Assembly (NCBI GenBank): GCA_031257015.1
Contig: JAIRPK010000056.1
Span: forward strand, 14,116-78,115
From: Tannerellaceae bacterium
GTDB taxonomy: Bacteria > Bacteroidota > Bacteroidia > Bacteroidales > Tannerellaceae
Direction: 5' to 3'
DNA length: 64,000 nt
In this document: positions 5,548-63,355 of the stretch, piece after piece
Position numbering within the stretch: the stretch's first letter is position 1
Layout of the letters: each line of letters starts with the position of its first letter
The notes under the pieces: model-generated
What the model was told of the DNA's origin: nothing
The model's database searches: none
The model's input: the letters and a program-made list of their open reading frames with translations, nothing else
Program-made: the position numbers and the translations under genes

Positions 5548-5958
5548 TTATTTCTTTTTCTTTACAGCTGCTGCTGGCGCTGCTCCAGCTTTAGGACGTT
5601 TTGCTCCATATTTGGAACGTCTTTGGGTACGTCCGTTTACACCTGCCGTATCCAATGTTCCACGTACTATGTGATAACGAACTCCGGGAAGGTCTTTTAC
5701 ACGACCACCACGAACTAAGACTATTGAGTGTTCTTGCAAATTGTGTCCCTCACCGGGTATGTAGGCATTGACTTCTTTTGTGTTTGTCAAACGAACCCTT
5801 GCTACTTTACGCATGGCTGAATTTGGCTTCTTGGGCGTCGTCGTATAGACCCGCACACATACGCCGCGCCGCTGCGGGCAAGCGTCTAAAGCCGGAGATT
5901 TCCCTTTGACGACCAAAGCTGTTCTTCCTTTTCTCACTAATTGCTGAATCGTAGGCAT
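5548..5958 (-). CDS. rpsL: 30S ribosomal protein S12
   Basis: [20 protein letters not shown] and [10 protein letters not shown] motifs. Confidence 0.99.
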
Positions 5959-6020
5959 ATTAAATTTTTATATTTATTTATATGTATTCTTTATTTTTAA
6001 TGCTTGTCAAAAACAGTGTG

Positions 6021-6051
6021 CAAAGATACTACTTATTCTCTAACTGCCAAA
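6021..6051 (-). promoter_or_regulatory. Bacteroidetes primary-sigma promoter of the str operon
   Basis: Minus strand reads TTTG (6051-6048), 19 nt, TATCTTTG (6028-6021), matching the -33/-7 consensus TTTG-N19-21-TAnnTTTG. A second TACCTTTG box lies at 6091-6098. Confidence 0.8.
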
Positions 6052-6995
6052 TAAATCGTTCTTTTTCACTCTTTTTTTCAAACGTGATGGCAAAGGTAGT
6101 TGCAAATATTTTATTACGCAAGTTCAGACGGCGAATTTGTCCTGTTCGTTGACTGGGGGACGTTTCCTGGAACTTTATTTTTCGTTCGTGGCGTATGGTT
6201 ACATGCCGGGGGAAGGGGATGCTCGGTTTTCTGTTTATGAAAACTGTTACTGAGAGTGTGATGTGAGATGGTTGGGGATGGTTATTTGCGGTTCCGGAGG
6301 GGGCGAAACTCTGTGCGCCGAGGTATATTTGTTACGGGGAGATGTGGGGAGAGGCGTTCGTTGATTACGGGCTTGTTTTTTGCCTGACGCGAGTGATTTG
6401 TATCAACTCAAGGGTGGGGATGCGAGTGGCTGCATGAACCGTTTGCTTTAATATTTGTGTTGCTTATGCTGAATGTTGCTTTACAGTTGCCGGCTTTGAT
6501 TATCCATGAAGCGAATTTGATGTTACGGATATATGTGGATTGTGTCCGAAGATTTCATAACATGCTCCGAGCTTCGATTTTGAAGTTTATTGCCTGGATT
6601 TAAATGAACACTAATGTATCGTTTTTCTTGTCTCTTTCATCTGGCTTGTTAATAAAGTTTTTTATGAAACAGTTCTATTCTTTTGCGGAACTGCGATGGG
6701 GACAAATCTCTCTTTAAATGTTTGGGGCGGTATTTGTATTAATATAAATGTATACTGGTCTTTCTGGAATGAATTTACGGGGATAAAGCGGGTGTGGAGT
6801 TTTTTTCTTTTTGCAGAGAACGGACAGTGGTTCGCGATTTTGTGTGTCCTGGAGAGGGTTCGCGTTCCTACTGTCCGTTCAATGGAGTTTTAATCTGTAT
6901 TTTAGTTTATCTGAGTTCTGGATAAGCAGGCAAATGTTTCTTCTGATTTTTTTGCTTGCGATGCTGTGAAAGCAAAAATTTGGTCTACGGCAGGT

Positions 6996-7121
6996 GAGTT
7001 TGATTCTCGGAGTGTCTCGTTTGATTCTCGGAGAATCAACGGTGATTCTCGGAGTGTCACGTTTGATGTTCGGAAGGTCATGCGAGATACTCCGGGGGGC
7101 ACGCTTGGGGGGTGGGACGTT
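6996..7121. repeat. 21-bp tandem repeat, 3 near-identical plus about 3 decayed units
   Basis: TGATTCTCGGAG at 7001, 7022 and 7043, with decayed copies in register at 7064, 7085 and 7106. Confidence 0.85.
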
Positions 7122-7223
7122 TCGGTTGAAGCCTGGAGATTTTTTGGAATATAATATGTAATCTCTTGCTTTTTTGTTTCTGCTGCATAAGTTTTCCAGA
7201 GCATTTTATTCAAGAATTATGTT

Positions 7224-7850
7224 TTAGGCCGGGTGTTGGGCGGCTAATACCAATTCGTTGATGCGGGTGATGACTTCGCGGACACTGGCGGAATCGACGG
7301 GAAGGTTCTCGATAAAGCTGCGTTTGAAGGAGAAGCCGAAATTGTAGCCGCCGCTGGTTTGAATCGTTATAAAGAAGCTTTTGTTGAAGCGGTACAGCGC
7401 CAGGCTTATTGTGCCGAGAAGTAGCAGGAAAACTCCCTGGGCGGGATTGGATGTGAGCATGATAATTCCGATGAATCCAAGCAGAATGGAGAGGAATATC
7501 CAACCGATTGGATTGTTGGCTCCGCATGATGTGGATGAGATTTTTTGCACTGGCGTGAGGGTGAGATGCTCGCCTGATGCACTGTTGGCGGAATAGTAGA
7601 TGCTGTCCTTTTTTACCAGTAGGCGATAGTAGTTGCCCAGTTTGAGTTTGGCTAATATCCATTGGATTAGTCCGGTTTTCCGGCCTTCGATTATGATGCG
7701 GTCGTCTCCGTCGGGCATGATTTGGAGTTTGCTTAGAGCCAGATGGACAGTGTTGCGGTTAAACAGGGATTTGATTACATAGATGGCGATAGCAAGGATG
7801 ATTATTCCGTATATGGCGGCGCTGCTATCTGAAGGTGAATTGTTAAACAT
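7224..7850 (-). CDS. Hypothetical membrane protein
   Basis: 208-aa ORF with an N-terminal hydrophobic segment and a central hydrophobic hairpin; no family recognised. Confidence 0.75.
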   Translation of the reverse strand: MFNNSPSDSSAAIYGIIILAIAIYVIKSLFNRNTVHLALSKLQIMPDGDDRIIIEGRKTGLIQWILAKLKLGNYYRLLVKKDSIYYSANSASGEHLTLTPVQKISSTSCGANNPIGWIFLSILLGFIGIIMLTSNPAQGVFLLLLGTISLALYRFNKSFFITIQTSGGYNFGFSFKRSFIENLPVDSASVREVITRINELVLAAQHPA

Positions 7851-8061
7851 GATACGTTGAATTTTAATTGTTTTTTTTTCTGCAAATGAATTTGTTCCTG
7901 CTCTTTCTTTAGTGTCGCGTGCTTCGGCTTTATTTACGACTTTTTTTATCTGTCAGGTTGGAAAGGGTATTGTTCTTCCTGCATATTTGTTGTGTCTTGT
8001 TTAAAATGGAATATCGCGAGGATAATCCGGAATTATGTCTCCTTAATCGTACTGTCAGAAA

Positions 8062-8204
8062 AAAACGGACGATTAAATTGACAATGATGCAAATATATAG
8101 ATAAAAACGAAGGAGGGGATTTTATCCTTTATTTTTAAGGCTTTGCAACCGTTTCAATTTTCTAGCCACCCGACCAAAATATTGTCAATTTAATCGTCCG
8201 TTTT
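8062..8204. repeat. Perfect 24-bp inverted repeat pair enclosing a 95-bp segment with a promoter box (candidate invertible promoter or MITE)
   Basis: AAAACGGACGATTAAATTGACAAT (8062-8085) is the exact reverse complement of ATTGTCAATTTAATCGTCCGTTTT (8181-8204). A minus-strand TATATTTG lies at 8090-8097. Confidence 0.9.
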
Positions 8205-8317
8205 CCCTGCCAGGGACAGTAAGAAAGACGCTTCCAATTAGCTTTAATTAAAATTCAATCCGTGTCAGTTTAAGCCGGAGTGTTCATGCGCAATTTTTAC
8301 TGCGAATGGGATAAACT

Positions 8318-8354
8318 CGCCCGACGCAGGATTATTTTATCCTGTGCCGGGGCG
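8318..8354 (-). terminator. Probable intrinsic terminator after meaB
   Basis: GC-rich imperfect hairpin (CGCCC..CAGGAT / ATCCTG..GGGCG) about 17 nt past the meaB stop, with a short T run. Confidence 0.5.
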
Positions 8355-8370
8355 GGTATGAGGAAACATT

Positions 8371-9462
8371 TTATTTAATGGTGGAGAGAAAGATGTCGAT
8401 TAGGCGCTTGGCTGCCACGAAGGAGCTGACGCGATTATCGAGCATCTGCCGTTCCGCGTTTTTTAGCTCGGCGGCGACGGAGGGGTTGTTGTAAAAAGAA
8501 TTGCGGAGAGCGTCGTGGATGCTTTCGTACATCCAGTATTTGGATTGCTCGCTGCGTTTGCGGAAGAAGCTGTTGTTTTGCTTCGTAAAAGAGATATAGT
8601 CATCAATCATTTTCCAAATTTCGTCGATGCCTAGCTTGTAGTAGCCGGAGTAGGTGAGGACAATGGGCTTCCATCCGGATTCGGGGGCGGGAAACAGGTG
8701 CAGGGCGTTGCGGAATTGCGAGGCTGCCATTCTCGCCTTTTCAATATTGTCACCGTCAGCTTTGTTGATGACTATTCCGTCGGCCATTTCCATTATTCCT
8801 CGTTTGATGCCTTGGAGTTCGTCTCCTGTACCTGCCAGTTGGATGAGGAGGAAGAAGTCAACCATGGAGTGGACTGCTGTTTCGCTTTGGCCTACTCCTA
8901 CTGTCTCGACGAAGATTGTATCGAAGCCGGCGGCCTCGCATAGAACAATAGTCTCACGAGTCTTGCGGGCAACGCCGCCCAATGAACCGGCAGAGGGTGA
9001 AGGGCGAATGAAGGCGTTCTTTGCTCTGGCAAGTTCTTCCATGCGGGTTTTGTCGCCAAGTATGCTGCCCTTGGTGCGTTCGCTGCTTGGATCGATGGCT
9101 AGAACGGCAAGCTTGCTGCCCTGATTGATGCGATACATGCCGAGGGCGTCAATGGATGTGCTTTTTCCTGCTCCGGGAACGCCGGTGATGCCAACGCGAA
9201 TGGAGCGGCCTGCATGGGGAAGGCAACGTTCAACTATTTCCTGGGCGATTTGCTGATGCTCGGCCTTTGAACTTTCTACAAGGGTTACGGCTTGGCTTAA
9301 CAGCGCGATATTGCCGTTCAGGATGCCTTCAGTATATTCAGCCGACGTGTATTCGCGCCTTGGTTGGCGCTTAACAAGATATGGGCTGACGGATGGTGCG
9401 CTGTGAACGCCCCGATTCACTTTGAGGCCTTTATATTGTTCATCGTTTTCGGGATGTATCAT
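8371..9462 (-). CDS. meaB: Methylmalonyl-CoA mutase-associated GTPase MeaB/ArgK
   Basis: GITGVPGAGKST, AIDPSS, ETVGVGQSE, DELQGIKRGIMEMAD and NKAD motifs. Confidence 0.95.
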   Translation of the reverse strand: MIHPENDEQYKGLKVNRGVHSAPSVSPYLVKRQPRREYTSAEYTEGILNGNIALLSQAVTLVESSKAEHQQIAQEIVERCLPHAGRSIRVGITGVPGAGKSTSIDALGMYRINQGSKLAVLAIDPSSERTKGSILGDKTRMEELARAKNAFIRPSPSAGSLGGVARKTRETIVLCEAAGFDTIFVETVGVGQSETAVHSMVDFFLLIQLAGTGDELQGIKRGIMEMADGIVINKADGDNIEKARMAASQFRNALHLFPAPESGWKPIVLTYSGYYKLGIDEIWKMIDDYISFTKQNNSFFRKRSEQSKYWMYESIHDALRNSFYNNPSVAAELKNAERQMLDNRVSSFVAAKRLIDIFLSTIK

Positions 9463-10598
9463 TTTTCGACGGTTACTTTGATGAGTTTAACTGGCTCATC
9501 GGGGAAGTTGGAGACGACGTATATATCGTCTGAAATTTCGGAGGTTATGTTTTTGGGGCGGATGCTGATTTTGTATTCAGCTGATGAACCGGGGGAAATT
9601 TCTCTCTTGTTTCCGGAAATCTCTACCAGCGGATTGTCGCAGGATATGCTGTATATAAGTAGTGCAGCCGTGCCACTATTAGTTATTTTCAGGGGGAGGG
9701 TGGATTTTTTTCCTGATTTGGACGGAGAGCCGGAACGTTGGTCGGAAATACGTCCGAAGCTTATGTGGGATGAGGAATATTGTGGCTGGGGCTTTTGCGT
9801 TCTGCCGGGAAGAGATAAGCGGGCATAGTTGTCAAGAATATTGGTACGGATGAGAATTAGGCTTTCAACCACTGTTCGTTTCTTGGCACTGTCGCTCTCC
9901 GCCAACAACGGGAAGCTTATCGAGGCACGACCGAGCTGGCCAATCTCGTCGGTACGCATGGAGAGAGTGATTTCTCCGTTTGCTCCGGGCAGGATTGTCG
10001 AGGGGGCGAGGTTGACGGAAAGGCCGGCGGGGAGTTTGCCGGTGCGGAGCTTGATGGGCGACAGTCCATCGTTCATGAATCGGATTGTGTCGCGGATGGT
10101 ATCGCCGGGGTAGGCGCTGGAGTGGGCTATGGTCATAGATTCTAGCTTGAGGCAGCCCAGGGAGTAGGGATAGACGAGGATGGGAAGAGCAGGCTCGTCG
10201 GGTTTCGGGGTGACGTTGCCCTTAATATATAATGTAAGCGGGCTGTTCCCTGCATTGGATGTTATCGACAGACTTTTGCGGAAGGGGCCGAGGCGCCCTT
10301 TGGAGTGATAGTTAATTTTTATCTCCGCTGTCGCTCCCGGCTCGACGGGAGTCTTCGGCCATTCGGGGCGGGCACATCCGCAGGAGGCGTAAATGTTGTT
10401 TATCAACAGCGGGGCTGTGCCTGTGTTTCTGATGGAGAACGTATGCGCGGCGCCTTCTTCTGATTCGGCTATTGTCCCGAAGTCGTATAATAACAAGTCC
10501 GCACTTATTTCGGCTGTTTTCCGGGTTTGCCCCTGGAGGGTTGCTATCGAAATAAGTGCGGACAAGATGAATGCCGCGATTGGCTGCATTTTTATCAT
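9459..10598 (-). CDS. DUF1573 multi-domain Ig-like protein
   Basis: DFGTI..F.I.NTG..PL.I..I.ASCGC..P.W pattern, repeated; upstream of meaB as in other Bacteroidales. Confidence 0.85.
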   Translation of the reverse strand: MIKMQPIAAFILSALISIATLQGQTRKTAEISADLLLYDFGTIAESEEGAAHTFSIRNTGTAPLLINNIYASCGCARPEWPKTPVEPGATAEIKINYHSKGRLGPFRKSLSITSNAGNSPLTLYIKGNVTPKPDEPALPILVYPYSLGCLKLESMTIAHSSAYPGDTIRDTIRFMNDGLSPIKLRTGKLPAGLSVNLAPSTILPGANGEITLSMRTDEIGQLGRASISFPLLAESDSAKKRTVVESLILIRTNILDNYARLSLPGRTQKPQPQYSSSHISFGRISDQRSGSPSKSGKKSTLPLKITNSGTAALLIYSISCDNPLVEISGNKREISPGSSAEYKISIRPKNITSEISDDIYVVSNFPDEPVKLIKVTVEK

Positions 10599-32318: not shown

Positions 32319-34157
32319 TCATCTCTTTACTACCTTTATACTCCTGGCTTCATTACCCATATCCGCCTCTAAAATATAAACCCCGGAAGGAAGATGACCG
32401 ACATGTATATTTATCGTGCTCTCCGCAGTTGTGTATGTAAAACGAGCGATTGTTCTTCCGCCCATATCCGTGATTTTAATGCTGCGAATTGCCTCATTTT
32501 TAACTGTGCGCACGTGAATATTTTCTCCGGAAATAGCGGCTATTAGCTCGACGGTGTTCTTATTTACTTTTTTCGTGCCAGTTGAGAAGGCAAGGCTGAG
32601 TTCTGCGTTTTTTTGCCCGCGGACTTTTTTCCAGTCGTGTCCATCAGGCTTATAATACATTTGCAAATTGTCGCCATCTACCCAATCATTAATGACATAC
32701 GGGCCTAAGTCCTCTTCAGAACGGGCAATGCCGGCTTCTATCGTATATTGTATGGAATCAAGCATCGCCTTTTTATTCCCTGCCTTGTCGAAAATAAAAA
32801 AGCCTATCGCGCCATTGAAATCCCTCATGCCGTAATCAGCTATGAATGAAAAGTTTAAGGTGAACGGCTCGCCTTTTTGAATAGGACTGTTTACAAATAA
32901 ACCTGTCGTCTCGTAAGTCTCATATTCATAAAAAAACAGTTCATTATCAATGAAGGAACCCTCAACGGCTCTTTTCAGACCGAGAACAGCGTCGTGATTA
33001 TACGAATAGCCAGAGCCGGGCATACTTTCTGCCGGATTGAGAGCGTCCAGAATATAAAACCCATTGGCCGTCCCGCTCCAACCCCAATTGACATGGTAAT
33101 AGCTTTTTCCAGTGCTCCGGTTCCTGGCAAATCCGTCAAGGAGGAACTGATGCCCCTCGGTGCCATCTTCCGTCAAACCTCCGTAGAGAACCAGCCGACC
33201 GGCGGTTAATTCCGCCTGCAATGCGTTGTCCCACTCGTCAAAATTGTAAAGTTCGCGCCATGCCAAATGCAAGCTTTTATCATACCCAAATGTGTTAACA
33301 AGCGCATTTACAGCGTCCCATTCGGTTGCACCGCTTGCCTCCGCACTATAATCCATGCGAACCATCGCCCCGCAGTGGAAAAGCAAAGTGGATACCGCCG
33401 TTGCCTGCGCAGAGGTGTAAAGATTTACATTATTTGACCTCGTGTAGGCATCCAGCATATCGTCCCAAGCGTAGGCCGTATTGAAATTCACGCTAACCGG
33501 AATCCGTTTATCTTTTGTCGTATAACTAACATGTCCCGAAGCCTTTTCAGGCCATCCGTAATACTTCATGGCGATGCCCATTGACGTGGCGACGCAACCA
33601 ACCAGAGAGCGGGAACGACCGTCGCGGGGACAAAGTTCGTTAAACGGCTCTGCCTGGTCCCATTTGGCGGTGGGAAGGAGGGTAACTGTTTCCAATTGGC
33701 TATCAGCCAGGAGGTTAGCAGAAGAAAAAGCCTGCCATTCCAGTAGCCTCTTTTCAGAAGCAACTGCGCCCGCGGCGATGGCCGACGAGATGTTTTTTTC
33801 ATAGCCAGAAAGCCATCGGCTAAGGTTTTCAGGCATATTATGAGCGGAAAAACTACCCTCGGCAGCATATCCGAGTATGGGGGAAGCAACGTCGTCAGCA
33901 GCGACGATGACAAATCCCGCATTGTCGCCGGTATTATAAATGTAAAAAAGAGGTATTTCTTCCGAAGGCTGGAGCGGTTGGACTTTCAAAACGGCGGTAT
34001 AAACCAAATTAACGGATGCGCTCCTTAATACGCCGCCATTCGCCGCAAAAGCCATAGCTATTTCCCTCGCTTTAGCCACATCCACCTGTTTTGCCTTTAC
34101 TAAAAAGATGTTTGATACTATTAAAAAAAGAATAAATGTATATGTCTTTATTTTCAT
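32319..34157 (-). CDS. C10 (streptopain/PrtT-like) cysteine protease with Spi-type prodomain and T9SS C-terminal domain
   Basis: GFVIVAADD prodomain, catalytic GCVAT and GHQF, HVNWGW.G..NGFY, C-terminal LPSGVYIL...KVVKR. Start set at the ATG at 34157 because the upstream TTG overlaps a TAACTTTG box at 34185-34192. Confidence 0.92.
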   Translation of the reverse strand: MKIKTYTFILFLIVSNIFLVKAKQVDVAKAREIAMAFAANGGVLRSASVNLVYTAVLKVQPLQPSEEIPLFYIYNTGDNAGFVIVAADDVASPILGYAAEGSFSAHNMPENLSRWLSGYEKNISSAIAAGAVASEKRLLEWQAFSSANLLADSQLETVTLLPTAKWDQAEPFNELCPRDGRSRSLVGCVATSMGIAMKYYGWPEKASGHVSYTTKDKRIPVSVNFNTAYAWDDMLDAYTRSNNVNLYTSAQATAVSTLLFHCGAMVRMDYSAEASGATEWDAVNALVNTFGYDKSLHLAWRELYNFDEWDNALQAELTAGRLVLYGGLTEDGTEGHQFLLDGFARNRSTGKSYYHVNWGWSGTANGFYILDALNPAESMPGSGYSYNHDAVLGLKRAVEGSFIDNELFFYEYETYETTGLFVNSPIQKGEPFTLNFSFIADYGMRDFNGAIGFFIFDKAGNKKAMLDSIQYTIEAGIARSEEDLGPYVINDWVDGDNLQMYYKPDGHDWKKVRGQKNAELSLAFSTGTKKVNKNTVELIAAISGENIHVRTVKNEAIRSIKITDMGGRTIARFTYTTAESTINIHVGHLPSGVYILEADMGNEARSIKVVKR

Positions 34158-40961: not shown

Positions 40962-42596
40962 TTATTTTTTAAGCTCAACATCGACTGTATCCCACGGAAG
41001 GATTTGAACGGTGGCCGTTGCATGAGTGTCGCCAGAACCGGAAGGCGTAGATTGAATCCTGTCCAAATCCTCAAGACACGGTGCGCCTATATATCCAAAG
41101 CTCGTAATAGTCCCGCGGTATTGCTTGTTGCGAAGGAGACCTCCGTCAGCGTTGCCGGATATGTCGAAGCGGTAATAGCATATGTAATTTTCGTATTTAT
41201 AAATCTTATGGCGTTTAGGTTCATAGCTTGACGTATATCCATCGGAGCTGCCGTCGTTCTCAAGGAAATAAACCACGCTCTTGGCCAAGTCCTCTGTTTG
41301 GTAGAATTTGAAGAAATCAAGGTAAGTACGATTCAACATAATACTGTCTCTTTTCAGAATGTCCGGAAGATTACGTATCCTGCCTGAGCCAGGAACATTT
41401 TCAACGTCATAATTAGAATTAAAATCAATATAATATGCCTCTGGAAAAAGAGTGGAGCTATAAGTGACAGCATTGACTATATGTGCAGTATTATCGAATG
41501 AGACAGACGTAACTTGCGCACCTGGCAATTGAGGCTTGAATCTGGCCTTGACAACAATATAAGTGCTATTCCCAACTTCGTCTAAAACATTCTCAGGAAC
41601 ATAATAATAATCAGAGGGCGTCGCTGACGATAAACTCTTTAAAGGAATATTTATCTCGGAGCTGTCGCCGTTCGACCACCAGAACGGTTTGTATGTCGCT
41701 ATTTCAGAGAGATCCAAGCCAGCAAGCGCATCGTGAAATGGAACCAGCGGTTTACTGTTTGCATCCGTATTTTTAAATAACGCCACAGCCCTGTTCTGGT
41801 TCCTGACGCCCCAATACAAATCGTCCAGGGTGCCACAATATTTTACAACAGACGAAGTCCATTTACTGCTAAAAGTTCCGCCTGAGTATCCTGTTATTGT
41901 CACCTTCGCAACCGTCCTTTGCAAATCAATAGAGAAATGATTCTTCGTCGAATCGGAGCCGGACTGCGATTCTTCTGAAGATATGTTCGGACGGACAATG
42001 CGAAGACTCGAACTATCCGACTGTGAATTACTGAAGACCATGTAAGGCGTAGTCATGTCGGAATAGTCCAGCGAGGAGAGCGGCGCAGGAGAGGAAGATA
42101 AGGCAGGACGGCCGAAGTCTATCTCGTGAAGAAAGAGTTTTCCGGCGCTGCTCGCGGTCTTGCTGGCGACCAGCTTGTCAAGCGTGAGGCCTTTCTGGTT
42201 GCCGAAGCGCCATGATTTGTTGTGTTCGTTGGCGAGGACAAAGATCCTTTTGGTTCCGGAAGTTAGCGGAACGGTAGCGGTTTGGTTGCCGGTGGTGAGA
42301 ACCGTGGTATCGACCTCGCATGTCCCGTTGTTGGCGCTGGTGTGAGAGTAAATCATCAGGCGCACACTCTTGATGGAATCCTTCTCGGCGGCGTCGCTTG
42401 TTAGCGGGGCCTTGGTTGAGCCTGTGACGGCGAAGTTGAAGGTGGCGTAAGTTACGTCCCTGGGGCTTTCAGTCTCATTTTCGGATAAACCGGCGGGGAC
42501 TTCCTTTACTGCGCACCCGGACAAGATTGCGGCGACGGTGGCCGCGAACAAAATAGTTGAATAGCTTTTCATTTTCTTATTATTAAAAAAGTTCAT
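40962..42596 (-). CDS. Type V pilus Mfa1/FimA-like pilin, paralog 5 (lipoprotein)
   Basis: Lipobox LSGC, STKAPL, RLMIY and KRIFVLAN N-domain, LQRTVAKV, YYRFDI..LRNKQY.G.I, Pro-containing tail and ILPWDTVDVELKK. Confidence 0.85.
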   Translation of the reverse strand: MNFFNNKKMKSYSTILFAATVAAILSGCAVKEVPAGLSENETESPRDVTYATFNFAVTGSTKAPLTSDAAEKDSIKSVRLMIYSHTSANNGTCEVDTTVLTTGNQTATVPLTSGTKRIFVLANEHNKSWRFGNQKGLTLDKLVASKTASSAGKLFLHEIDFGRPALSSSPAPLSSLDYSDMTTPYMVFSNSQSDSSSLRIVRPNISSEESQSGSDSTKNHFSIDLQRTVAKVTITGYSGGTFSSKWTSSVVKYCGTLDDLYWGVRNQNRAVALFKNTDANSKPLVPFHDALAGLDLSEIATYKPFWWSNGDSSEINIPLKSLSSATPSDYYYVPENVLDEVGNSTYIVVKARFKPQLPGAQVTSVSFDNTAHIVNAVTYSSTLFPEAYYIDFNSNYDVENVPGSGRIRNLPDILKRDSIMLNRTYLDFFKFYQTEDLAKSVVYFLENDGSSDGYTSSYEPKRHKIYKYENYICYYRFDISGNADGGLLRNKQYRGTITSFGYIGAPCLEDLDRIQSTPSGSGDTHATATVQILPWDTVDVELKK

Positions 42597-42653
42597 ATTG
42601 GATATTTATTCTTATTGTAACTGTTCGTTAAGCCTTGCGGTGTTCTGTTACAT

Positions 42654-44270
42654 TCATCGGGCGTAACGGTTGATTCGCGGAGAGTGTCGCATGATTCTCG
42701 AAGAATCGGCTGATGTGCCGGCGTTCTCTTCCACAGTTTCCCAAGGCAGGATTCGGAGGCTGACGACAGCTTTGGGAGCTACTTTGGGAGCGGCGTAAAT
42801 ATTATCAAGGTCGGTAAGCCGGGGCGCTCCCAAATCGGTAAATTCCGTAATGGTTCCACGGTATTGCCGGTTGCGAATTATGCCGCCCTCGGCATTGTCG
42901 GACATGTCGAAGCGGTAGTAGCATACTCCGTTTTCGTATGTATCTATTTTCAGTATCTCCGGCTCATAGTTTGACAAATAGCCGGCATCGCTGTTTTTAT
43001 GCTCAAGGATATAGCTCACGCGCTTTGCATCATATATATTGCTGAAAAGGGAGCCGGGGGAAGATGACGGGGCGTTAAAGATTGTTTCGTCGATGAGCCT
43101 CCTGTCGAGAGCAGCTTTATAGGCCTCCGGGTTAAGGCGATGGAAAGTCATCGGCACGCGGTATGACATTAGCGTCACATCCAGCTTGCCTATTGCAACG
43201 TCAAACGTCGCGCTGCGGATAACCGTCATGTCTGCCGGAGTAAATTCCGCCTTGACGGCAATGTAAGTGCTGTTTCTCTCCTCGTCATAAACATTCTCCG
43301 GCACATAGTAATACTCCGGCAGCGAATCCACATCGGCCACCGGGATGTTTATCTCCCTACCCGTGAGATCATTCTTCCACCAGAAGACTTTGTAGAGGTC
43401 TGTCCACTCAGGATTATAACCCTCTGTGATGTTGTAAAACGGGGGCTGGAGCTTGCCGTTCACGTCCGTACTTCTGAACAGAGCCACTGCACGGCTTTGA
43501 TTCCTTACTCCCCAGTATATTTCACCGAACGTTCCGGCGATGCTTTCTGCGGAAGCGATTTCAGAACCGGAGGAATTGAACATGGTTACTTTCGCAAGCG
43601 TTCTTTGCAGCTCAATTGTAAAGCGGTTCGTCGTCGAATCTGCCTGTTCGTCCTGCGATGCTTCTGCGGATATGTCCGGATGCAAATTCCTCAAGCTCGA
43701 CGAATCTGACTGAGCATTGCTGAACACCATATAAGGCAAGGCCATGTCTGTATAATCCAGCGACACGAGGGGGAGCAGGTACAGCGACGCTCCGAAATCC
43801 GGCGTCCCGAAATCTATTTCGTGCAGGAACAATTTCCCGCCGCCGGCCATGGTTCGGGAGTCCAGCAGTTGAAGCAGGCTTTGACCTTTCTGGTTCGCGA
43901 AGCGCCAGGTCTTGTCATGCTCATTGGCGACGACGAATATGCGCTTGGCGCCGACGGTTACGAGAACGGTGGCTGACGCTGAATCGGAGGCCATAATGGT
44001 GGTGTCAACCTCGCAAAGGCCGAGATTGCCTGCCTTATGGGCGTATATCATTAATCGAAAGCTTTTAATTGAATCTTTTTCGCCGGCGTTGCCGACCAAG
44101 GCGGCTTTGGTGGCTCCTTCAACGGCGAAATCGAATGTTGCGAAGGTTAATGCCGGAGCAGGCTCGACTGTTTCTTCTTCCCATATAACCGGAACTTCCC
44201 TGACGGCGCAGCCCGACAAAATTACAGCTGCAATTGCAGCCGCGAACAGGGGTGTTAGATGGATATTCAT
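42654..44270 (-). CDS. Type V pilus Mfa1/FimA-like pilin, paralog 4, altered and extended C-terminus
   Basis: LSGC, ATKAAL, KRIFVVAN, LQRTLAKV, YYRFDM..IRNRQY; ends ILPWETVEENAGTSADSSRIMRHSPRINRYAR. Confidence 0.85.
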   Translation of the reverse strand: MNIHLTPLFAAAIAAVILSGCAVREVPVIWEEETVEPAPALTFATFDFAVEGATKAALVGNAGEKDSIKSFRLMIYAHKAGNLGLCEVDTTIMASDSASATVLVTVGAKRIFVVANEHDKTWRFANQKGQSLLQLLDSRTMAGGGKLFLHEIDFGTPDFGASLYLLPLVSLDYTDMALPYMVFSNAQSDSSSLRNLHPDISAEASQDEQADSTTNRFTIELQRTLAKVTMFNSSGSEIASAESIAGTFGEIYWGVRNQSRAVALFRSTDVNGKLQPPFYNITEGYNPEWTDLYKVFWWKNDLTGREINIPVADVDSLPEYYYVPENVYDEERNSTYIAVKAEFTPADMTVIRSATFDVAIGKLDVTLMSYRVPMTFHRLNPEAYKAALDRRLIDETIFNAPSSSPGSLFSNIYDAKRVSYILEHKNSDAGYLSNYEPEILKIDTYENGVCYYRFDMSDNAEGGIIRNRQYRGTITEFTDLGAPRLTDLDNIYAAPKVAPKAVVSLRILPWETVEENAGTSADSSRIMRHSPRINRYAR

Positions 44271-44379
44271 TGATTCATTTGAATTTAATCTTTTTATTCT
44301 TCAAAAACAATCGGGCTTTTACGGCTCGACCTTTAATTGCGAATTGTCAGCGATAAGAGAGGCTCGACGGACAACGGCA

Positions 44380-44387
44380 CAAATGTA
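44380..44387 (-). promoter_or_regulatory. -7 promoter box for pilin unit 2
   Basis: Minus strand TACATTTG followed by TGCCGTTG; same context as the box at 50353-50360. Confidence 0.7.
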
Positions 44388-44626
44388 GGGATAAAAACGG
44401 GCGCATCATACTGTTCTTATCTTTTCCCTGAAGCCTCTATTGCATAAACAGGCCATGTTTAACAATGCTTTCCTGCGCCATGATACTGCTGAAACCGACT
44501 GTTAACCAGAGTTATTCCGGGCGGGGGCGATTAGTTTCGCGCATGTTTTTTTTCTTGTTCCAGAACAGGTATAATTCATTTTGCTTGAAGCTATGAGTTC
44601 CATTTTTAAGCTTTCATGTATGCCAT

Positions 44627-45098
44627 GACATCTTCCGAAGATGTCTTGACATGTGGCGAACGTCTCTAAACATGTAATGAACGTCTTTAAAGACGTGACG
44701 AACGTCTCTAGACATGTAAAGAACGTCTTTAAAGACGTAACGAACGTCTCTAGACCTGTAATGAACGTCTTTAATGACGTGATGAACGTCTCTAGACATG
44801 TAATGAACGTCTTTAAAGACGTGACGAACGTCTCTAGACATGTAATGAACGTCTTTAAAGACGTGGCGAACGTCTCTAGACATGTAATGAACGTCTTTAA
44901 AGACGTAACGAACGTCTCTAGACATGTAATGAACGTCTTTAAAGACGTAATGAACGTCTCTAAAGACGTGGCGAACGTCTCTAGACATGTAATGAACGTC
45001 TTTAAAGCCGTAACGAACGTCTCTAGACATGTGGCGAACGTCTTTAAAGACGTGACGAACGTCTCTAGACATGTAATGAACGTCTTTAAAAAAGTTCG
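44627..45098. repeat. 21-bp tandem array, 21 units, mostly alternating A/B (42-bp higher order), palindromic
   Basis: GAACGTC every 21 bp from 44658 to 45078. A = GAACGTCTCTAGACATGTAAT, B = GAACGTCTTTAAAGACGTGAC. Confidence 0.97.
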
Positions 45099-45196
45099 AT
45101 GCTTCCTTAAAACAGAAAATAGATGCTCCGGTCTTTTGTTTTGGCCATCTGATGAGGCGCAAGGCAAAGGCTGCGTCTTAATCCTCTCCGCCGCAT

Positions 45197-45233
45197 AAAA
45201 AAACAGAGACGCGCCGTTCGTTGCGCGTCTCTA
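45197..45233 (-). terminator. Intrinsic terminator of pilin unit 1
   Basis: Minus strand AGAGACGCGC-N8-GCGCGTCTCT followed by GTTTTTTT. Confidence 0.85.
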
Positions 45234-45339
45234 TCCCTTGAGTCTAAACGTTGGGAGTAAGGGGCTGCCGGTTGTGCGGCTCGCCCTTTATCCCATGATT
45301 CTTTACCGTAGCATCTACATACGGTCTTTGTGCTTCCGA

Positions 45340-46929
45340 TTATTTCTTCAGCTCGACATCAACTATCACCCACGGCAATATCTCTACGGTAGCCGTGGCA
45401 TGGGTGCCGGCCGGCCCGCCTTCAGGCGTGGTTTTGAAATCGTCGAGGAGGGAAAGCCTGGGCAGACCGATGCCGCGAAAATTGGTTATCCGTCCACGGT
45501 ATTGCTTGTTACGCAACAGGCCGCCGTCTTTGTTGTCCGCTATGTCGAAGCGGTAATAGCATGTGCCGCCTTCATACGTTTCTATCTTTAGTCTGATTGG
45601 CTTATAATCGGCCTGATAACCGACAGCGGTGCCTTGTTCGAGGAAATAAATTAAGCGCCTGGCAATATCCTTGGTGGGGAATGTGGCTTTTTTATGAAGT
45701 TGTCCATTGAATGCGCTCTCGTCAATCGTCAAATTGGCGGCTTCCTCAGTTTCTGGTGGATAATCATAATTGACGCTGTAATATGTCACACCCTTGTCAA
45801 TATTCTTATAGCTGGTGCCGGTTATCTTATGCGAAGCCTCATCAACGGTAAAACCTGTAACTACAACATTTGGTTTGAAATTGGCCTTAACCACAATGTA
45901 GGTGCTATTCCCTGCCTTATCATAAAGATTCTCCGGAACATAATAATTCGACGAAACAGAGTTTCCGAGAGGTATGTTTATTTCCGCTCCGGATTCATCG
46001 CCTGCCCACCAGTACGGATTGTAGATCGACCAGTCCGTATCGTCCAAACCATCCAGTACGTTGAGGAACGGTGGCTGCACCTTGCCGCTCCCGTCAACAA
46101 GCTTGAATATGGAAATAGCCCGGCTCTGGTTCCTTACGCCCCAGTAGGTGTCTGACAACGCTCCATCTTCGTGGCGCTGACCGGTTCCAGTACTATAACT
46201 TGTAGTATAAATACCCACTTTAGCGACTGTCCGTTGCAGAACCATCCTGAAATGATTGGAGCGTTCCGTTGCGGTATCGGCTTGCGACTGTGCGAGAGTG
46301 ATGTCCGGCAGGATTTCAAACAGGTTAGGCCATTCCGCTGTTGCACTGGTTGGTAAAGCAGCCTGTGCATTGCTGAAAATCATATCGGGCGTTGCGATGC
46401 TGGAGTAGTCCAGGGATGTTAGAGGCTCGGCCGTCCCGGCGCTCAGGGCTGGTTCTCCGAAATTAATATCGTGCAGGGCGAGTTTTCCTCCGCTGGCGGC
46501 TGTCCGTTCTTCCAGCAACTTGGAGAGGGCATTGCCTTTCTGGTTGGGAATACGCCAGCTCTTGCTGTAATCGTTTGCGATTACAAGAATGTATTTCCAC
46601 CCGGATTCGAGAGAGAGGGCGGCGGATTCGCTATCGTTGGTCATGATGGTGGTATCAATCTCGCATGAGCCGGTTGAGTTGCTCAGGCGTTTGTATATCA
46701 TCAATCGTATGCTCTTGATGGAATCTTTCTCGGCGGCATCACCGGCTAACGGGGCCTTGGTGACTCCATCGACGGAAAATGAGAACGTGGCGTAGCTTGG
46801 AACGCCGGCTGACGGGGTTTCTTCTTCTTCAAAAGCGACAGGCGCTTCCTTGACTGCACAGCTTGACAGCATTGTGGCGGCGATAGTGGCAGCGAAAACA
46901 GATAATAGATGTTTAGTCATTCTTTTCAT
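45340..46929 (-). CDS. Type V pilus Mfa1/FimA-like pilin, paralog 3
   Basis: LSSC, VTKAPL, LQRTVAKV, YWGVRNQSRA, YYRFDI..LLRNKQY and ILPWVIVDVELKK. Confidence 0.85.
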   Translation of the reverse strand: MKRMTKHLLSVFAATIAATMLSSCAVKEAPVAFEEEETPSAGVPSYATFSFSVDGVTKAPLAGDAAEKDSIKSIRLMIYKRLSNSTGSCEIDTTIMTNDSESAALSLESGWKYILVIANDYSKSWRIPNQKGNALSKLLEERTAASGGKLALHDINFGEPALSAGTAEPLTSLDYSSIATPDMIFSNAQAALPTSATAEWPNLFEILPDITLAQSQADTATERSNHFRMVLQRTVAKVGIYTTSYSTGTGQRHEDGALSDTYWGVRNQSRAISIFKLVDGSGKVQPPFLNVLDGLDDTDWSIYNPYWWAGDESGAEINIPLGNSVSSNYYVPENLYDKAGNSTYIVVKANFKPNVVVTGFTVDEASHKITGTSYKNIDKGVTYYSVNYDYPPETEEAANLTIDESAFNGQLHKKATFPTKDIARRLIYFLEQGTAVGYQADYKPIRLKIETYEGGTCYYRFDIADNKDGGLLRNKQYRGRITNFRGIGLPRLSLLDDFKTTPEGGPAGTHATATVEILPWVIVDVELKK

Positions 46930-46961
46930 TGTGTGAAATAGTTTTTATTATTAATATTAAA

Positions 46962-48518
46962 TTACTTTAGGTCAACAGTAACTGTCTCCCACGGCAATAT
47001 CAGTATGGTTGCGCTTGCATGTGTCGAGCTTTGAGCAACCGTCGGGATTTCGTCAAGTTCGTCAGGCCTGGAGAATCCCAGTTTAGTGAACTCCGTTATC
47101 CTTCCAAGATATTGTTTGTTGCGCAGCAAGCCTCCGTCGGTATTGTCGGAGATGTTGAAGCGATAGTAGCAGACGCCGTTAGTATAGGTATCAATTTTTA
47201 GTTTCTCAGGAGTATAGCCGGCTGTCCACAATGCAGGGCTACCGGAATGTTCAAGCATGCAGGCAATCAGTGTTGCATCGTCCTGTTTGGCAAAAACCAG
47301 TCCTTCGATGTCGGAATATGAGCCGAGAGAGGAGTAATTCACGCCGGATGAGGCTAACGATGCAGGATTAATGCGGTAGAATGTTGCGGGGGCAGTTGTC
47401 GTGCCTTTCTCAATCGAGGTAATACTCTGGACAACTCCGTCTTCCTCGTCGTAAGCAATCGACTTGACCAGATTATTGGCTGCCGGGATGAATGAAGCCT
47501 TTGCTGCAATGTAGGTGCTGTTACCCATGGTTCCGAACACATTCTCCGGGACATAATAGTATCTCTCCTCATCGCCTTCGGCGTTCACCGTAAGGTTTAT
47601 CTCCACGCCCGTCTGGTCGCCCGTCCACCAGTATGGCTTATAGATCGTAACATTAGTGAGGTCGAGGCCTGCCAGGACGTTGTAGAGAGGTGAGCGAACC
47701 TTTCCGTCTGCTCCTGTTTCCTTAAACAGAGCTACTGCCCGGTTCTGGTTCCTTACGCCCCAGAATAGATTGCTCAGACCTCCACTCAGAGATTCTGCAT
47801 TAATGTTCATCGAGGCGGCTACATTATTGACGGTAACTTTCGCAACAACTCTCTGCACTGGGATTGTGAAATGATTCTTCGACGCATCGGCTGTTTCGCT
47901 CTGGGATTCCTCCAGCGAGATGTCCGGCAGAACCGTAAAGATGCTCGACGACGTTGCCTGCGAATTGCAAAAGACCATTTTGGGTGTCACAATGCTGGAA
48001 TAGTTTAACGCTGTAAGTGCTGCGGGCGGCGTCCCTGCCAGTAGAGGCGTTCCGAAATCAATCTCATGCAGGAAGAGTTTGTTTCCGCTTGTCTCCGTCT
48101 TTGTCCCAATCAAATCCGTTAACGCTCGTCCTACTTGTCCTGATAGAAATGAGTTCACGCCTGGTTCGTTAGCAATCACGAAGATGCGCTTTGCTCCTGG
48201 GCTGACTTTTAGCGATGACGTCCTTGTGGAAGTAGTCGTAAGATTTGTATCAATCTCACAGATGCCGGAATTATCCCCTGCGTGAGCGTAAATCAGCAAG
48301 CGGATTTTTGCAATATCGCTCGTCTCGTTCTCGTCACTCGTAAGAGGAGCCTTGGTTTCTCCCTCAATGTTGACGTCAAGCGTCATATAGGTGGCATCAC
48401 TTGTCGGTTCAGGAGTTTCTTCCTCAATAGAAACGGGAGTTTCCTTAACCGAACAACTCGATAGAAAAGCAGCAGCTACGGCTGCAAACAAAAAAGAAAG
48501 CAGATTTTTTTTCATCAT
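46962..48518 (-). CDS. Type V pilus Mfa1/FimA-like pilin, paralog 2
   Basis: LSSC, ETKAPL, KRIFVIAN, VQRVVAKV, YYRFNI..LLRNKQY and ILPWETVTVDLK. Confidence 0.85.
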   Translation of the reverse strand: MMKKNLLSFLFAAVAAAFLSSCSVKETPVSIEEETPEPTSDATYMTLDVNIEGETKAPLTSDENETSDIAKIRLLIYAHAGDNSGICEIDTNLTTTSTRTSSLKVSPGAKRIFVIANEPGVNSFLSGQVGRALTDLIGTKTETSGNKLFLHEIDFGTPLLAGTPPAALTALNYSSIVTPKMVFCNSQATSSSIFTVLPDISLEESQSETADASKNHFTIPVQRVVAKVTVNNVAASMNINAESLSGGLSNLFWGVRNQNRAVALFKETGADGKVRSPLYNVLAGLDLTNVTIYKPYWWTGDQTGVEINLTVNAEGDEERYYYVPENVFGTMGNSTYIAAKASFIPAANNLVKSIAYDEEDGVVQSITSIEKGTTTAPATFYRINPASLASSGVNYSSLGSYSDIEGLVFAKQDDATLIACMLEHSGSPALWTAGYTPEKLKIDTYTNGVCYYRFNISDNTDGGLLRNKQYLGRITEFTKLGFSRPDELDEIPTVAQSSTHASATILILPWETVTVDLK

Positions 48519-48699
48519 TTGAATTTAATAGATATGTTTATGTATAGCGCGGACTTGTTATAAATGTTCTCTTAAGCCTTGAGATGCCAGGCACCACATT
48601 GCGGAACTTCAACGTCATGCGTCTCTCCACAAGAAATAGCCATTCTGCCTCAAAAGTCTAATCGAAAAAGAACAATCTTTAGGAGTCCGTTAGTATTTG

Positions 48700-50238
48700 T
48701 CATTTTAAGTCCAGTACCAGCGTATCCCAGGACATAATCTGCACCCCGGACGCTCCCTGTCTCCCACCGATAGACATCGGCTTAATCTCGTCAAGCAGTT
48801 CTATCCGTGCAGCTCCCACTCCTCCAAAGGAGGTAATCTTCCCTCGATACTGTTTATTGCGCAGCAGCCCTCCGTCGGCATTGTTCGATATGTCAAAGCG
48901 ATAGTATGAAATGCCGTTCTCGTGCGTTTCAATCTTCAGCCTCACCGGTTCATAGCCTGCAGGATAAGACGAAATGTCGCCGTCATGCTCAAGGAAATAG
49001 GCAACGCGCCTTGCTTCCTCGATATTCGTAAACGGCTGCCCGACGGCAATCAAATTATTGAGCCGGAAAAGATCAATCGTTATAGCGGATGCTTCCTCCG
49101 TTTCTGGCGAAGCATTATAATTAATGGTATAGTAAGTCTGATGTGCAGGAAGCCTTAGCGTCTCAACGTCCGAAACTGTCCCCTTGTCTTCGTTAAAAAA
49201 AACTCTGTCAATGCAGTATGCCGGTTTGAAATTCGCCTTGACCACAATATAGGTACTGTTCCCCGTGCTGCCATAAACATTCTCCGGGACATAATAATAA
49301 TTCGCCACTGATGCTCCCAGATCCATTGGGATGTTCACATCCTCGCCTGCCACATCGCCCGTCCACCAGTACGGTTTATAGTCCGAAATATCTGAAGGCC
49401 ACGACAAGTCGAAGAACGGCGGACTCACCCTGCCTCCTTCGACAGTCTTGCGGAATAGCGCTACTGCCCTGTTCTGATTCCTTACACCCCAGTAGAGGTC
49501 ATCATAATCTCCGCTGATATAATCGTTCTCCGTATAATTCAAGTTCGCAGCACAGAAAACCGTCACCTTCGCCACAGCCCTTTGCATACTAATCCTGAAA
49601 TGATTCTTCAACGAATCCCCCGGACTGTTCAGCGTTTCCTCCTGCGACACATTCGGAAGCACTGTGCGAATGCTCGCCGAATCCGCTTGCGAATTACTAA
49701 AGACCATATAAGGTTTAACAAGGTCAGAATAGTCCACCGACGTAAGCGGCTCAATAAGCTCTGAGCTGCTAAGAGCTGGCGTTCCGAAATCAATCTCATG
49801 CAAGAACAAATGACCACCCCTTGCGGGATTTTTGTCAATAATCATCTCCCTCAGGCTATGCCCCTTCTGGTTCGGGATGCGCCAGGACTTGTCGTGCTCG
49901 TTGGCAATAACGAAAATGCGCTTCTCTCCTGGACTGACCGGGATAGCCACAGAAGCGGTCATATATGTGGTGTCCACTTCGCAAACACCATCATTCCCGG
50001 TTGTATGCTCATATATCATCATGCGTGTGCTAAGGAGCGATTCAGACTCGTCAGCGTCGCTCGTCATCGAAGTCTTGGAAGTTCCTGCAACGGAGAAGCT
50101 GAACGTAGCGTAGGTAACATCCTTCGCAGACACATCTCCTTCTCCCGCCCATCCAACGAGAGTTTCCTTCACCGTACAACTTGACAAAACCGCAACTGCA
50201 ACGGTAGCCTTAAGCAAATAGGTTAGATAGAATTTCAT
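48700..50238 (-). CDS. Type V pilus Mfa1/FimA-like pilin, paralog 1
   Basis: LSSC, TSKTSM, KRIFVIAN, MQRAVAKV, YYRFDI..LLRNKQY and IMSWDTLVLDLK. Confidence 0.85.
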   Translation of the reverse strand: MKFYLTYLLKATVAVAVLSSCTVKETLVGWAGEGDVSAKDVTYATFSFSVAGTSKTSMTSDADESESLLSTRMMIYEHTTGNDGVCEVDTTYMTASVAIPVSPGEKRIFVIANEHDKSWRIPNQKGHSLREMIIDKNPARGGHLFLHEIDFGTPALSSSELIEPLTSVDYSDLVKPYMVFSNSQADSASIRTVLPNVSQEETLNSPGDSLKNHFRISMQRAVAKVTVFCAANLNYTENDYISGDYDDLYWGVRNQNRAVALFRKTVEGGRVSPPFFDLSWPSDISDYKPYWWTGDVAGEDVNIPMDLGASVANYYYVPENVYGSTGNSTYIVVKANFKPAYCIDRVFFNEDKGTVSDVETLRLPAHQTYYTINYNASPETEEASAITIDLFRLNNLIAVGQPFTNIEEARRVAYFLEHDGDISSYPAGYEPVRLKIETHENGISYYRFDISNNADGGLLRNKQYRGKITSFGGVGAARIELLDEIKPMSIGGRQGASGVQIMSWDTLVLDLK

Positions 50239-54817: not shown

Positions 54818-54850
54818 TAAATAGCCTCTTGAAATTCAAGAGGCTATTTA
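54818..54850. terminator. Terminator hairpin after rlmN; insertion landmark of the intron
   Basis: Perfect inverted repeat TAAATAGCCTCTTGAA-A-TTCAAGAGGCTATTTA. Confidence 0.85.
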
Positions 54851-57943: not shown

Positions 57944-58246
57944 TCCGGAATCCCGAAAGTATTTTTCCTTGCGTCGGGAAGAATTTCCGGAATCCCGAAA
58001 GTATTTTTCCTGACGTCGGGAAGCTTTTCTGAATCCCGAAAGTATTTTTCCTGATGTCGGGAAGCTTTTCTGAACCCCGAAAGTATTTTTCCTGACGTCG
58101 GAAAGCTTTTCTGAACCCCGAAAGTATTTTTCCTGACGTCGGGAAGCTTTTCTGAATCCCGAAAGCTTTTTTCCTGACGTCGGGAAGCTTTTCTGAACCC
58201 CGAAAGCTTCCCGACGCCGGTAAAAATACTTTCGGGGTTTCGGAAA
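57944..58246. repeat. 41-bp tandem array (6 units plus a partial one) ending in an inverted unit
   Basis: CCCGAAAG at 57952, 57994, 58035, 58076, 58117, 58158 and 58199. Unit CTGAAYCCCGAAAGTATTTTTCCTGACGTCGGGAAGCTTTT; 58201-58246 is a reverse-complement unit. Confidence 0.95.
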
Positions 58247-63196: not shown

Positions 63197-63292
63197 ATCG
63201 CTACGGACACCCTTGCCTTCGGCTAACGGTTGGTAACTACCGACCTCCGTATTGGACTTGAACCAACAAGTGGGTTGGCATGCTTGGCGAAC
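63197..63292 (-). mobile_element. 96-nt 5' fragment of the same IIC group II intron
   Basis: Minus strand GTTCGCCAAGCATGCCAACCCAC...GTAGCGAT matches 54857-54951 with about 7 differences (hand alignment) and begins at the foot of a terminator hairpin. Confidence 0.88.
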
Positions 63293-63335
63293 AATGAAAA
63301 CGCCCTCTGCGTAATGGCAGAGGGCGTTTTCATTG
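63292..63335 (-). terminator. Intrinsic terminator after the edge gene
   Basis: Perfect 19-bp stem CAATGAAAACGCCCTCTGC / GCAGAGGGCGTTTTCATTG with a 6-nt loop. Confidence 0.88.
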
Positions 63336-63355
63336 TATTTGCAGTTGCTTTCGTA

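Follow-up and report, generated by a model that had tools for sequence, protein, structure and literature searches.

A probable invertible promoter between meaB and an uncharacterised membrane-protein gene in a termite-gut Tannerellaceae bacterium

Positions 8062-8204 of the DNA analysed here, a 64-kb stretch that we call the window, most probably form an invertible promoter, that is, a phase-variation switch or inverton. The first-pass annotation had proposed this reading, and we found support for it in a metagenome contig that carries a flipped junction, in two homologous elements that stand in the opposite state, and in the lack of dispersed copies. In the model that we favour, a recombinase encoded elsewhere would swap strands within two 24-bp repeats and flip the 95-bp segment between them. 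A promoter at the edge of the segment would initiate transcription inside the adjoining repeat arm and direct it outward. The orientation found in the window would be the ON state, in which a 233-nt leader and the gene for a 208-aa membrane protein are transcribed. In the flipped, OFF state, the promoter box would move to plus-strand positions 8169-8176 and face the likely terminator hairpin of meaB, and the 208-aa gene would be left with no consensus promoter.

Inverted repeats and the predicted promoter

The left arm (8062-8085, AAAACGGACGATTAAATTGACAAT), proximal to the target gene, and the right arm (8181-8204), proximal to meaB, are each 24 nt long, 100% complementary to each other and spaced by 95 nt. 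With up to 3 mismatches tolerated, the arm 24-mer has 2 sites only in 64 kb, and the same search gave a match in 0 of 100 dinucleotide-preserving shuffles. The perfect 24-bp inverted repeats around 95 bp noted at first pass are thereby confirmed, and they are unique in the window. Their proposed outward extension with mismatches was also found, in the pairing of ACTGTC (8051-8056) with GACAGT (8215-8220) across an asymmetric bulge. The element is intergenic, located between meaB and the 208-aa gene, both of which are on the minus strand; inverted repeats around a short intergenic segment, the arrangement by which an inverton is recognised, are therefore present at 8062-8204.

A MITE that had transposed into the gap between meaB and the 208-aa gene would likewise have inverted repeats at the ends of a short, non-coding body, and a direct match of 6/7 (CTGTCAG / CTGCCAG) is located 3 and 2 nt outside the arms. 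This origin nevertheless appears exceedingly improbable to us. No target-site duplication abuts the arms, whose flanks (...cagaaa and ccctgc...) contain no direct repeat, and there are no further copies in the window. Beyond the window, no real copies were found in genome and metagenome collections or in viral contigs. The inner 19-mer of the arm had two single-arm matches when one genome per species was searched (185,579 species), both in unrelated DNA and attributable to chance on inspection, and two single-arm matches among 241 million metagenome records, again in unrelated DNA and by chance; the degenerate site pattern had no match in viral contigs. In addition, the bodies of three related elements (that of the window and those of L011 and L001, described below) are unrelated apart from the promoter box, and a MITE would not give a flipped junction at a fixed site. 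As far as the searched genome, metagenome and viral collections reach, a MITE is excluded. Many dispersed copies with target-site duplications, which the first-pass annotation had named as the observation that would speak for a MITE, were looked for and not found.

Several other repeats and structures in the vicinity were considered. A perfect 13-nt inverted repeat at 7857-7869 and 8246-8258 (TTGAATTTTAATT / AATTAAAATTCAA) encloses the intergenic region including the switch; it is at or near chance level and was rejected as a real feature, and there was no sign of a second inversion at these positions, where contigs of the metagenome X1 (introduced below) are unbroken. A third repeat-like copy at 8031-8050 (75%) was set aside as well, being at or near chance level with no X1 contig break. 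The possibility that the element is an intrinsic terminator was also rejected: the stem is A+T-rich, the loop is 95 nt long, and a terminator scan made no call there. Farther away, a perfect 16-nt inverted repeat with a spacer of 35 nt lies at 10497-10563, inside the 5' end of a DUF1573 gene.

The invertible segment (8086-8180) contains a predicted promoter. The plus strand has caaatata at 8090-8097, and its reverse complement TATATTTG gives a Bacteroidetes-type -7 box on the minus strand (8097-8090), 4 nt from the left arm and facing the 208-aa gene. The -7 consensus is TAnnTTTG (PMC4747536). Between 7800 and 8400 this is the sole TAnnTTTG on either strand, a relaxed search of the minus strand of the same region with TAnnTTTN gave no further match, and the chance expectation for the consensus is ~0.07 per 95 nt, two strands. 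Homologous elements carry their box in the same position. In the window as a whole, 25 of the 45 TAnnTTTG boxes are intergenic, although intergenic DNA makes up 18% of the sequence, and many boxes precede a gene start by 17-160 nt and are correctly oriented towards it (among them those of rpsL, bipA, surA and the fimbrillin genes). Therefore, this genome uses the Bacteroidetes -7 consensus, and the predicted box at 8097-8090 supplies what an inverton should hold, a host-type promoter inside the segment that faces a gene.

TTTG is absent at the -33 spacing from this box. A GTTTTT is located 5 nt upstream of it and recurs at several other likely promoters of the window, and a sigma-70 scan was uninformative for the phylum Bacteroidota. 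On the basis of the box, promoter activity is predicted, with a transcription start at ~8082-8085, inside the left arm. A search for RNA runs that contain the organism gave none. The first-pass annotation had placed the -7 box at the same minus-strand position, 4 nt from the left repeat and facing 7224-7850, had seen no second TAnnTTTG between 8085 and 7850, and had reported no canonical -33 TTTG at the usual spacing; our searches agree with it on all of these.

From the switch to the start codon, a long 5' leader (7851-8061, minus strand) contains no other consensus promoter and belongs to no Rfam family, the Rfam search of 5900-8500 having given no match. On the other side of the element, meaB (8371-9462, minus strand; PF03308, E=3.6e-104) encodes the methylmalonyl-CoA mutase-associated GTPase and marks a conserved synteny edge. 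A hairpin after meaB had been noted at first pass, and we located there a G+C-rich, stable stem-loop (~8315-8357, minus strand) that lies 14 nt past the stop codon and is followed by UUUAU. Its region has a z-score of -3.7. The stem-loop is a likely terminator, and it likely insulates the switch from meaB read-through.

A flipped junction in metagenome contigs

Words of the locus were found in 6 public runs, the best of which, X1 (SRR14710896 according to the Logan contig record), is a termite-gut metagenome that contains 98% of the sampled words. The evidence on orientation comes from assembled Logan contigs, not raw reads, and the flipped junction comes from one sample. At the element, one X1 contig ends at 8085, a 149-nt contig spans 8056-8204, and a third begins at 8175; their overlaps are exactly 30 nt, which is k-1 at the k=31 used for Logan contigs. 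A 24-nt repeat by itself cannot branch a k=31 graph. Since the repeat is too short to cause the break at node 8056-8085, that 30-mer must have two continuations in the reads.

The second continuation was found in a 36-nt X1 contig of depth 2.9, of which letters 1-30 equal 8175-8204 on the plus strand and letters 7-36 equal 8056-8085 on the minus strand. It reads CAAAAT, the right arm and TTTCTG, or, on the other strand, CAGAAA, the left arm and ATTTTG. The contig thus joins the left flank, the inverted repeat and the reverse-complemented far end of the segment, which makes it the left junction of the flipped form. Together with the contig breaks at 8085 and 8175, it supports an invertible segment at 8086-8180, between the arms. 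Neighbouring contigs have a depth of 12.2-13.3 versus 2.9 for the flipped-junction contig, and the flipped left junction is present in roughly a fifth of the molecules.

The right flipped junction (the reverse complement of 8086-8091 followed by 8181-8210) was not among the X1 contigs. Sampling loss at a depth of ~3, where low-count words are dropped, is a plausible reason, and one to which we would give a chance of about a fifth by our own estimate; an artefact of fold-back or template switching at an inverted repeat would likewise yield a one-sided junction. In X2, a second sample with the locus, at depth 2.9, the window orientation alone was seen, and X3-X6 cover the locus too thinly to show orientation.

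These contigs bear on the possibility that the element never inverts and instead has a static role, structural or protein-binding (as a cruciform, operator pair or processing stem); the 36-nt contig would then be a library artefact. Such an element would fit the finding of a single flipped junction out of two, at depth 2.9 and in one sample, and it would also fit the fold of the element, whose single strand forms a very stable 24-bp stem (z = -7.2). However, about 1/5 of the local depth far exceeds, in our own judgement, what fold-back or template-switch artefacts usually reach, and, as a rough control, other perfect short inverted repeats at 54818-54850 and 63291-63336 lie inside unbroken X1 contigs. 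A 95-nt loop is also unlike a terminator, and a static element leaves unexplained both the opposite orientation in two homologues and the promoter that always abuts an arm. Hence, we regard a static element as very unlikely.

Alternatively, the inversion could be real without being an active switch: strains that live together could differ in a fixed orientation, or the element could be a relic that has lost its recombinase. Metagenome data look the same whether one clone switches or strains of fixed orientation coexist, and the presence of a single orientation in X2 and the lack of a recombinase in the window would both suit such a history. Against it, the arms are still identical at 24/24 positions, and those of the homologues at 38/39 and 29/31, as might be expected if recombination homogenises them. 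Moreover, the site is common to at least three to five loci, and this implies that they are served by one enzyme that still functions. We therefore hold a fixed or relic inversion to be improbable, and we infer that an active promoter switch is still operating within one strain. From a practical point of view, breaks of k-mer contigs at short inverted repeats can expose both orientations without raw reads.

Related elements, the recombination site and its enzyme

The nearest relatives of the window's MeaB, at 75-85% identity, come from termite-gut MAGs of Tannerellaceae and 'Bacteroidia bacterium', and from Parabacteroides species. The closest, 85% identical, is encoded in L011, a termite-gut relative with the same DUF1573-DUF1573-meaB order. 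In the corresponding position after meaB, L011 carries an 88-bp segment flanked by 39-nt arms (97% complementary, 38/39), and a susC/susD pair follows 262 nt downstream; each arm is the palindrome TTGTCAATTTAAA-GGAACG-TTTAAATTGACAA. The sole TAnnTTTG of the 1-kb intergenic region (TACCTTTG) is located 0 nt from the meaB-proximal arm and faces away from susC; as assembled, the element is thus in the OFF state, the reverse of that in the window. As a side observation, dense imperfect palindromes with arms up to 72 nt lie between meaB and the inverton of this genome (L011:5060-5240). In six further meaB relatives (L012-L017), no element was found after meaB, and the meaB end is a synteny break where different cargo was placed.

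The second related element was found in L001, a termite-gut Bacteroidia genome that had been retrieved for its homologue of the 208-aa protein. Its 31-nt arms (94% complementary, 29/31) surround 148 bp, and TATATTTG is located 1 nt from an arm and faces away from the downstream genes, which again corresponds to the opposite, OFF state; no other TAnnTTTG box occurs in the 2 kb around the element. We do not claim that the L001 homologue of the 208-aa protein is under this switch, as the homologue is separated from the inverton-proximal gene by a strong terminator. An array of 42-nt units, similar to the arrays of the window described below, is located between the L001 inverton and the first downstream gene (L001:2500-2800).

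All 6 arms from the window, L011 and L001 align on ATTGTCAAWTTAAWSG-NN-CGT. Additional contigs from X1, X3 and X5 (161-166 nt) and from X2 (51 nt) contain the arm and box region with 3-4 mismatches and with different flanks, and in the X2 contig TAGCTTTG occurs at an equal distance from the arm; further loci of this kind thus exist in these communities. The site in the 161-166-nt contigs of X1, X3 and X5 is fully palindromic, ATTGTCAATTTATACG-GA-CGATTAAATTGACAAT; all of these contigs, that of X2 included, were observed only as pieces matching window positions 8059-8098.

This alignment suggests a site of two inverted half-sites that meet at a central dinucleotide, GA in the window and AA/TT in L011 and L001. 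In the left arm (8062-8085), the putative crossover centre would be GA at 8068-8069, next to the well-conserved inner half-site CGATTAAATTGACAAT, and in the right arm (8181-8204) it would be TC at 8197-8198. Comparison with the fully palindromic L011 site points to a degenerate outer half-site on each side, at 8051-8058 for the left site (ACTGTCAG, cf. ATTGTCAA) and at 8213-8220 for the right site (GGGACAGT, cf. TTGACAAT). A half-site search of the window with 3 mismatches returned counts at chance level.

As for the enzyme, the first-pass annotation had reported no recombinase in the window, and this held when its 49 ORFs were scanned, which cover 8 kb on the upstream side of the switch and 56 kb on the downstream side: resolvase and integrase domains were found in none of them, and PF00239-type proteins are absent from the 64 kb. 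Likewise, no recombinase was found within 4-5 kb of the L011 and L001 elements. Since none is encoded in the window or near the relatives, the enzyme would have to act in trans. A candidate would be an Mpi-like serine invertase that cuts at the central dinucleotide, GA at 8068-8069 and TC at 8197-8198. The inverted-repeat consensus of the Mpi regulon, ARACGTWCGT, resembles the ACG-NN-CGT core found here, and the match to it would be 8/10 in the window (AAACGGACGA), 9/10 in L011 (AAACGTTCCT) and 10/10 in L001 (AAACGTTCGT). We lean only somewhat towards a serine invertase and consider a tyrosine recombinase somewhat less probable. The 95-bp spacer is short for synapsis, which would need DNA bending.

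Together, the window locus, L011 and L001 define a recombination-site family, ATTGTCAAWTTAAWSG-NN-CGT, with which the complete regulon, and the invertase behind it, could be sought in termite-gut genomes. A far-reaching extension of these findings would be a regulon of promoter invertons in termite-gut Tannerellaceae, served by one Mpi-like master serine invertase that acts on a 34-bp crossover site of two half-sites, with the good half-site inside or outside the flipped segment. In such a regulon, recombinase occupancy would be coupled mechanically to promoter use, because transcription would start inside the crossover site, and the 208-aa PH-like protein would be a phase-variable envelope factor in phage/host interaction. 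We offer this picture as speculation and think it rather unlikely to hold as a whole.

The target protein, the wider window and known switches

The target gene (7224-7850, minus strand) encodes a 208-aa membrane protein of an uncharacterised family. It had been labelled an uncharacterised membrane protein at first pass, and the label fits our results: the protein has no Pfam, NCBIfam or PADLOC match, and transmembrane helices are present in its model. In the AlphaFold model (mean pLDDT 79.7), an N-terminal transmembrane helix and a beta-rich domain precede a transmembrane helical hairpin, which is followed by two strands and a helix. A fold search gave weak PH-like matches only, none with E below 0.001. 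The protein is a small envelope protein. Fourteen close relatives were found, each of them in a termite-gut or related metagenome, and a profile search extended the family to 983 cluster representatives at E-values up to 0.001; among the family members tested, no Pfam family covers the 208-aa region.

No inverted repeat was found upstream of the distant homologues in L002, L003 and L008, which indicates that phase variation belongs to the locus and not to the family. In L002, the homologue lies 87 nt downstream of a gene for a CARF-PD-DExK (Card1-like) nuclease (L002:2793-4606; PADLOC E=8e-141), a hint that part of the family may act together with defence signalling by cyclic oligonucleotides. 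Phase-variable expression would be the first functional handle on this widespread, unannotated family of small membrane proteins.

Several features of the wider window were recorded in addition. Between the 208-aa gene and rpsL, 1.27 kb (5959-7223) gave no convincing ORF, Pfam or Rfam match; the plus-strand GC skew of this region is +0.2 to +0.4, and a 21-nt repeat in 3.7 copies (6998-7074) contains a small palindrome, GAGAATCA...TGATTCTC. Five FimA/fimbrillin-like genes (512-544 aa) with paralogous ends occupy 40962-50238. An X1 contig joins 45562 to 46712 and 49272 in this cluster, probably on account of shared paralogous sequence, and no inverted-repeat switch was seen there. An intergenic tandem array of 41-42-nt units in 10.3 copies (44653-45085) lies in the same cluster; a spurious 173-aa ORF overlaps it, and its X1 depth is 191 versus 16. 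Another array of 41-42-nt units, in 6.3 copies plus one inverted (57948-58206), is located between a gene for an outer-membrane efflux protein and genes for FtsX-type permeases. A gene at 32319-34157 encodes a C10-family cysteine peptidase that carries a Spi-type inhibitor domain at its N terminus and ends in a sorting tail for type IX secretion, and appears ordinary for the phylum.

Human-gut Bacteroidales vary their surface mainly by promoter inversion, a mechanism that is ordinary for the order; what is new here is the termite-gut habitat and the target gene. In the literature searched, we found no description of promoter inversion in termite-gut Bacteroidales, and the two terms co-occur only in unrelated work. 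The features that set the element apart are its habitat, its small size and a site family that links at least three loci.

Among known systems, fimS of Escherichia coli (FimB/FimE) is similar in being an invertible promoter with ON/OFF control of a surface component. The two differ in repeat length (9 bp in fimS), segment size (314 bp), recombinases (tyrosine enzymes encoded next to fimS) and promoter type (sigma-70). The enterobacterial Hin/hix and phage Mu Gin/gix systems offer a likeness in half-site layout: hix is a 12-2-12 site, in which two imperfect inverted half-sites surround a central dinucleotide, and the layout here would be 15/16-2-15/16, fully palindromic in L011. Unlike the window segment, which is 95 bp long with no gene inside, these systems invert about 1-3 kb that includes the invertase gene and a Fis-bound enhancer.

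Further parallels are found in Bacteroides fragilis, whose master invertases Mpi, Tsr0667 and Tsr19 act on distant promoters (PMC4747536). Tsr19 (BF2766) is a single recombinase that flips a local and a distant promoter, IVp-I and IVp-II (PMC4747536). An inverton may adjoin housekeeping genes without affecting them, as IVp-II does beside groES/EL, whose expression is unaffected (PMC4747536), and the window switch likewise follows meaB. In contrast to the window switch, which has no recombinase nearby, Tsr19 is a tyrosine recombinase encoded beside one of its targets, and the site centre in the window would be 2 bp rather than 6-8 bp.

The Mpi system of B. fragilis is comparable in layout: the promoters under its control, at capsular polysaccharide loci and others, are short intergenic segments with 19-30-bp inverted repeats and a Bacteroides -7 box inside. 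Mpi itself is a serine recombinase that inverts 13 regions (PMC4747536). The window switch differs in its host, a termite-gut Tannerellaceae-like organism, and in its shorter segment of 95 bp. Instead of capsule operons with UpxY/UpxZ, the genes targeted here code for a small PH-like membrane protein and for a SusC/D pair, and no mpi-like gene was seen in the 64-kb window. What the window switch would have in common with the Mpi system is its likely organisation, in which one recombinase encoded elsewhere would serve many loci with a common inverted-repeat core.
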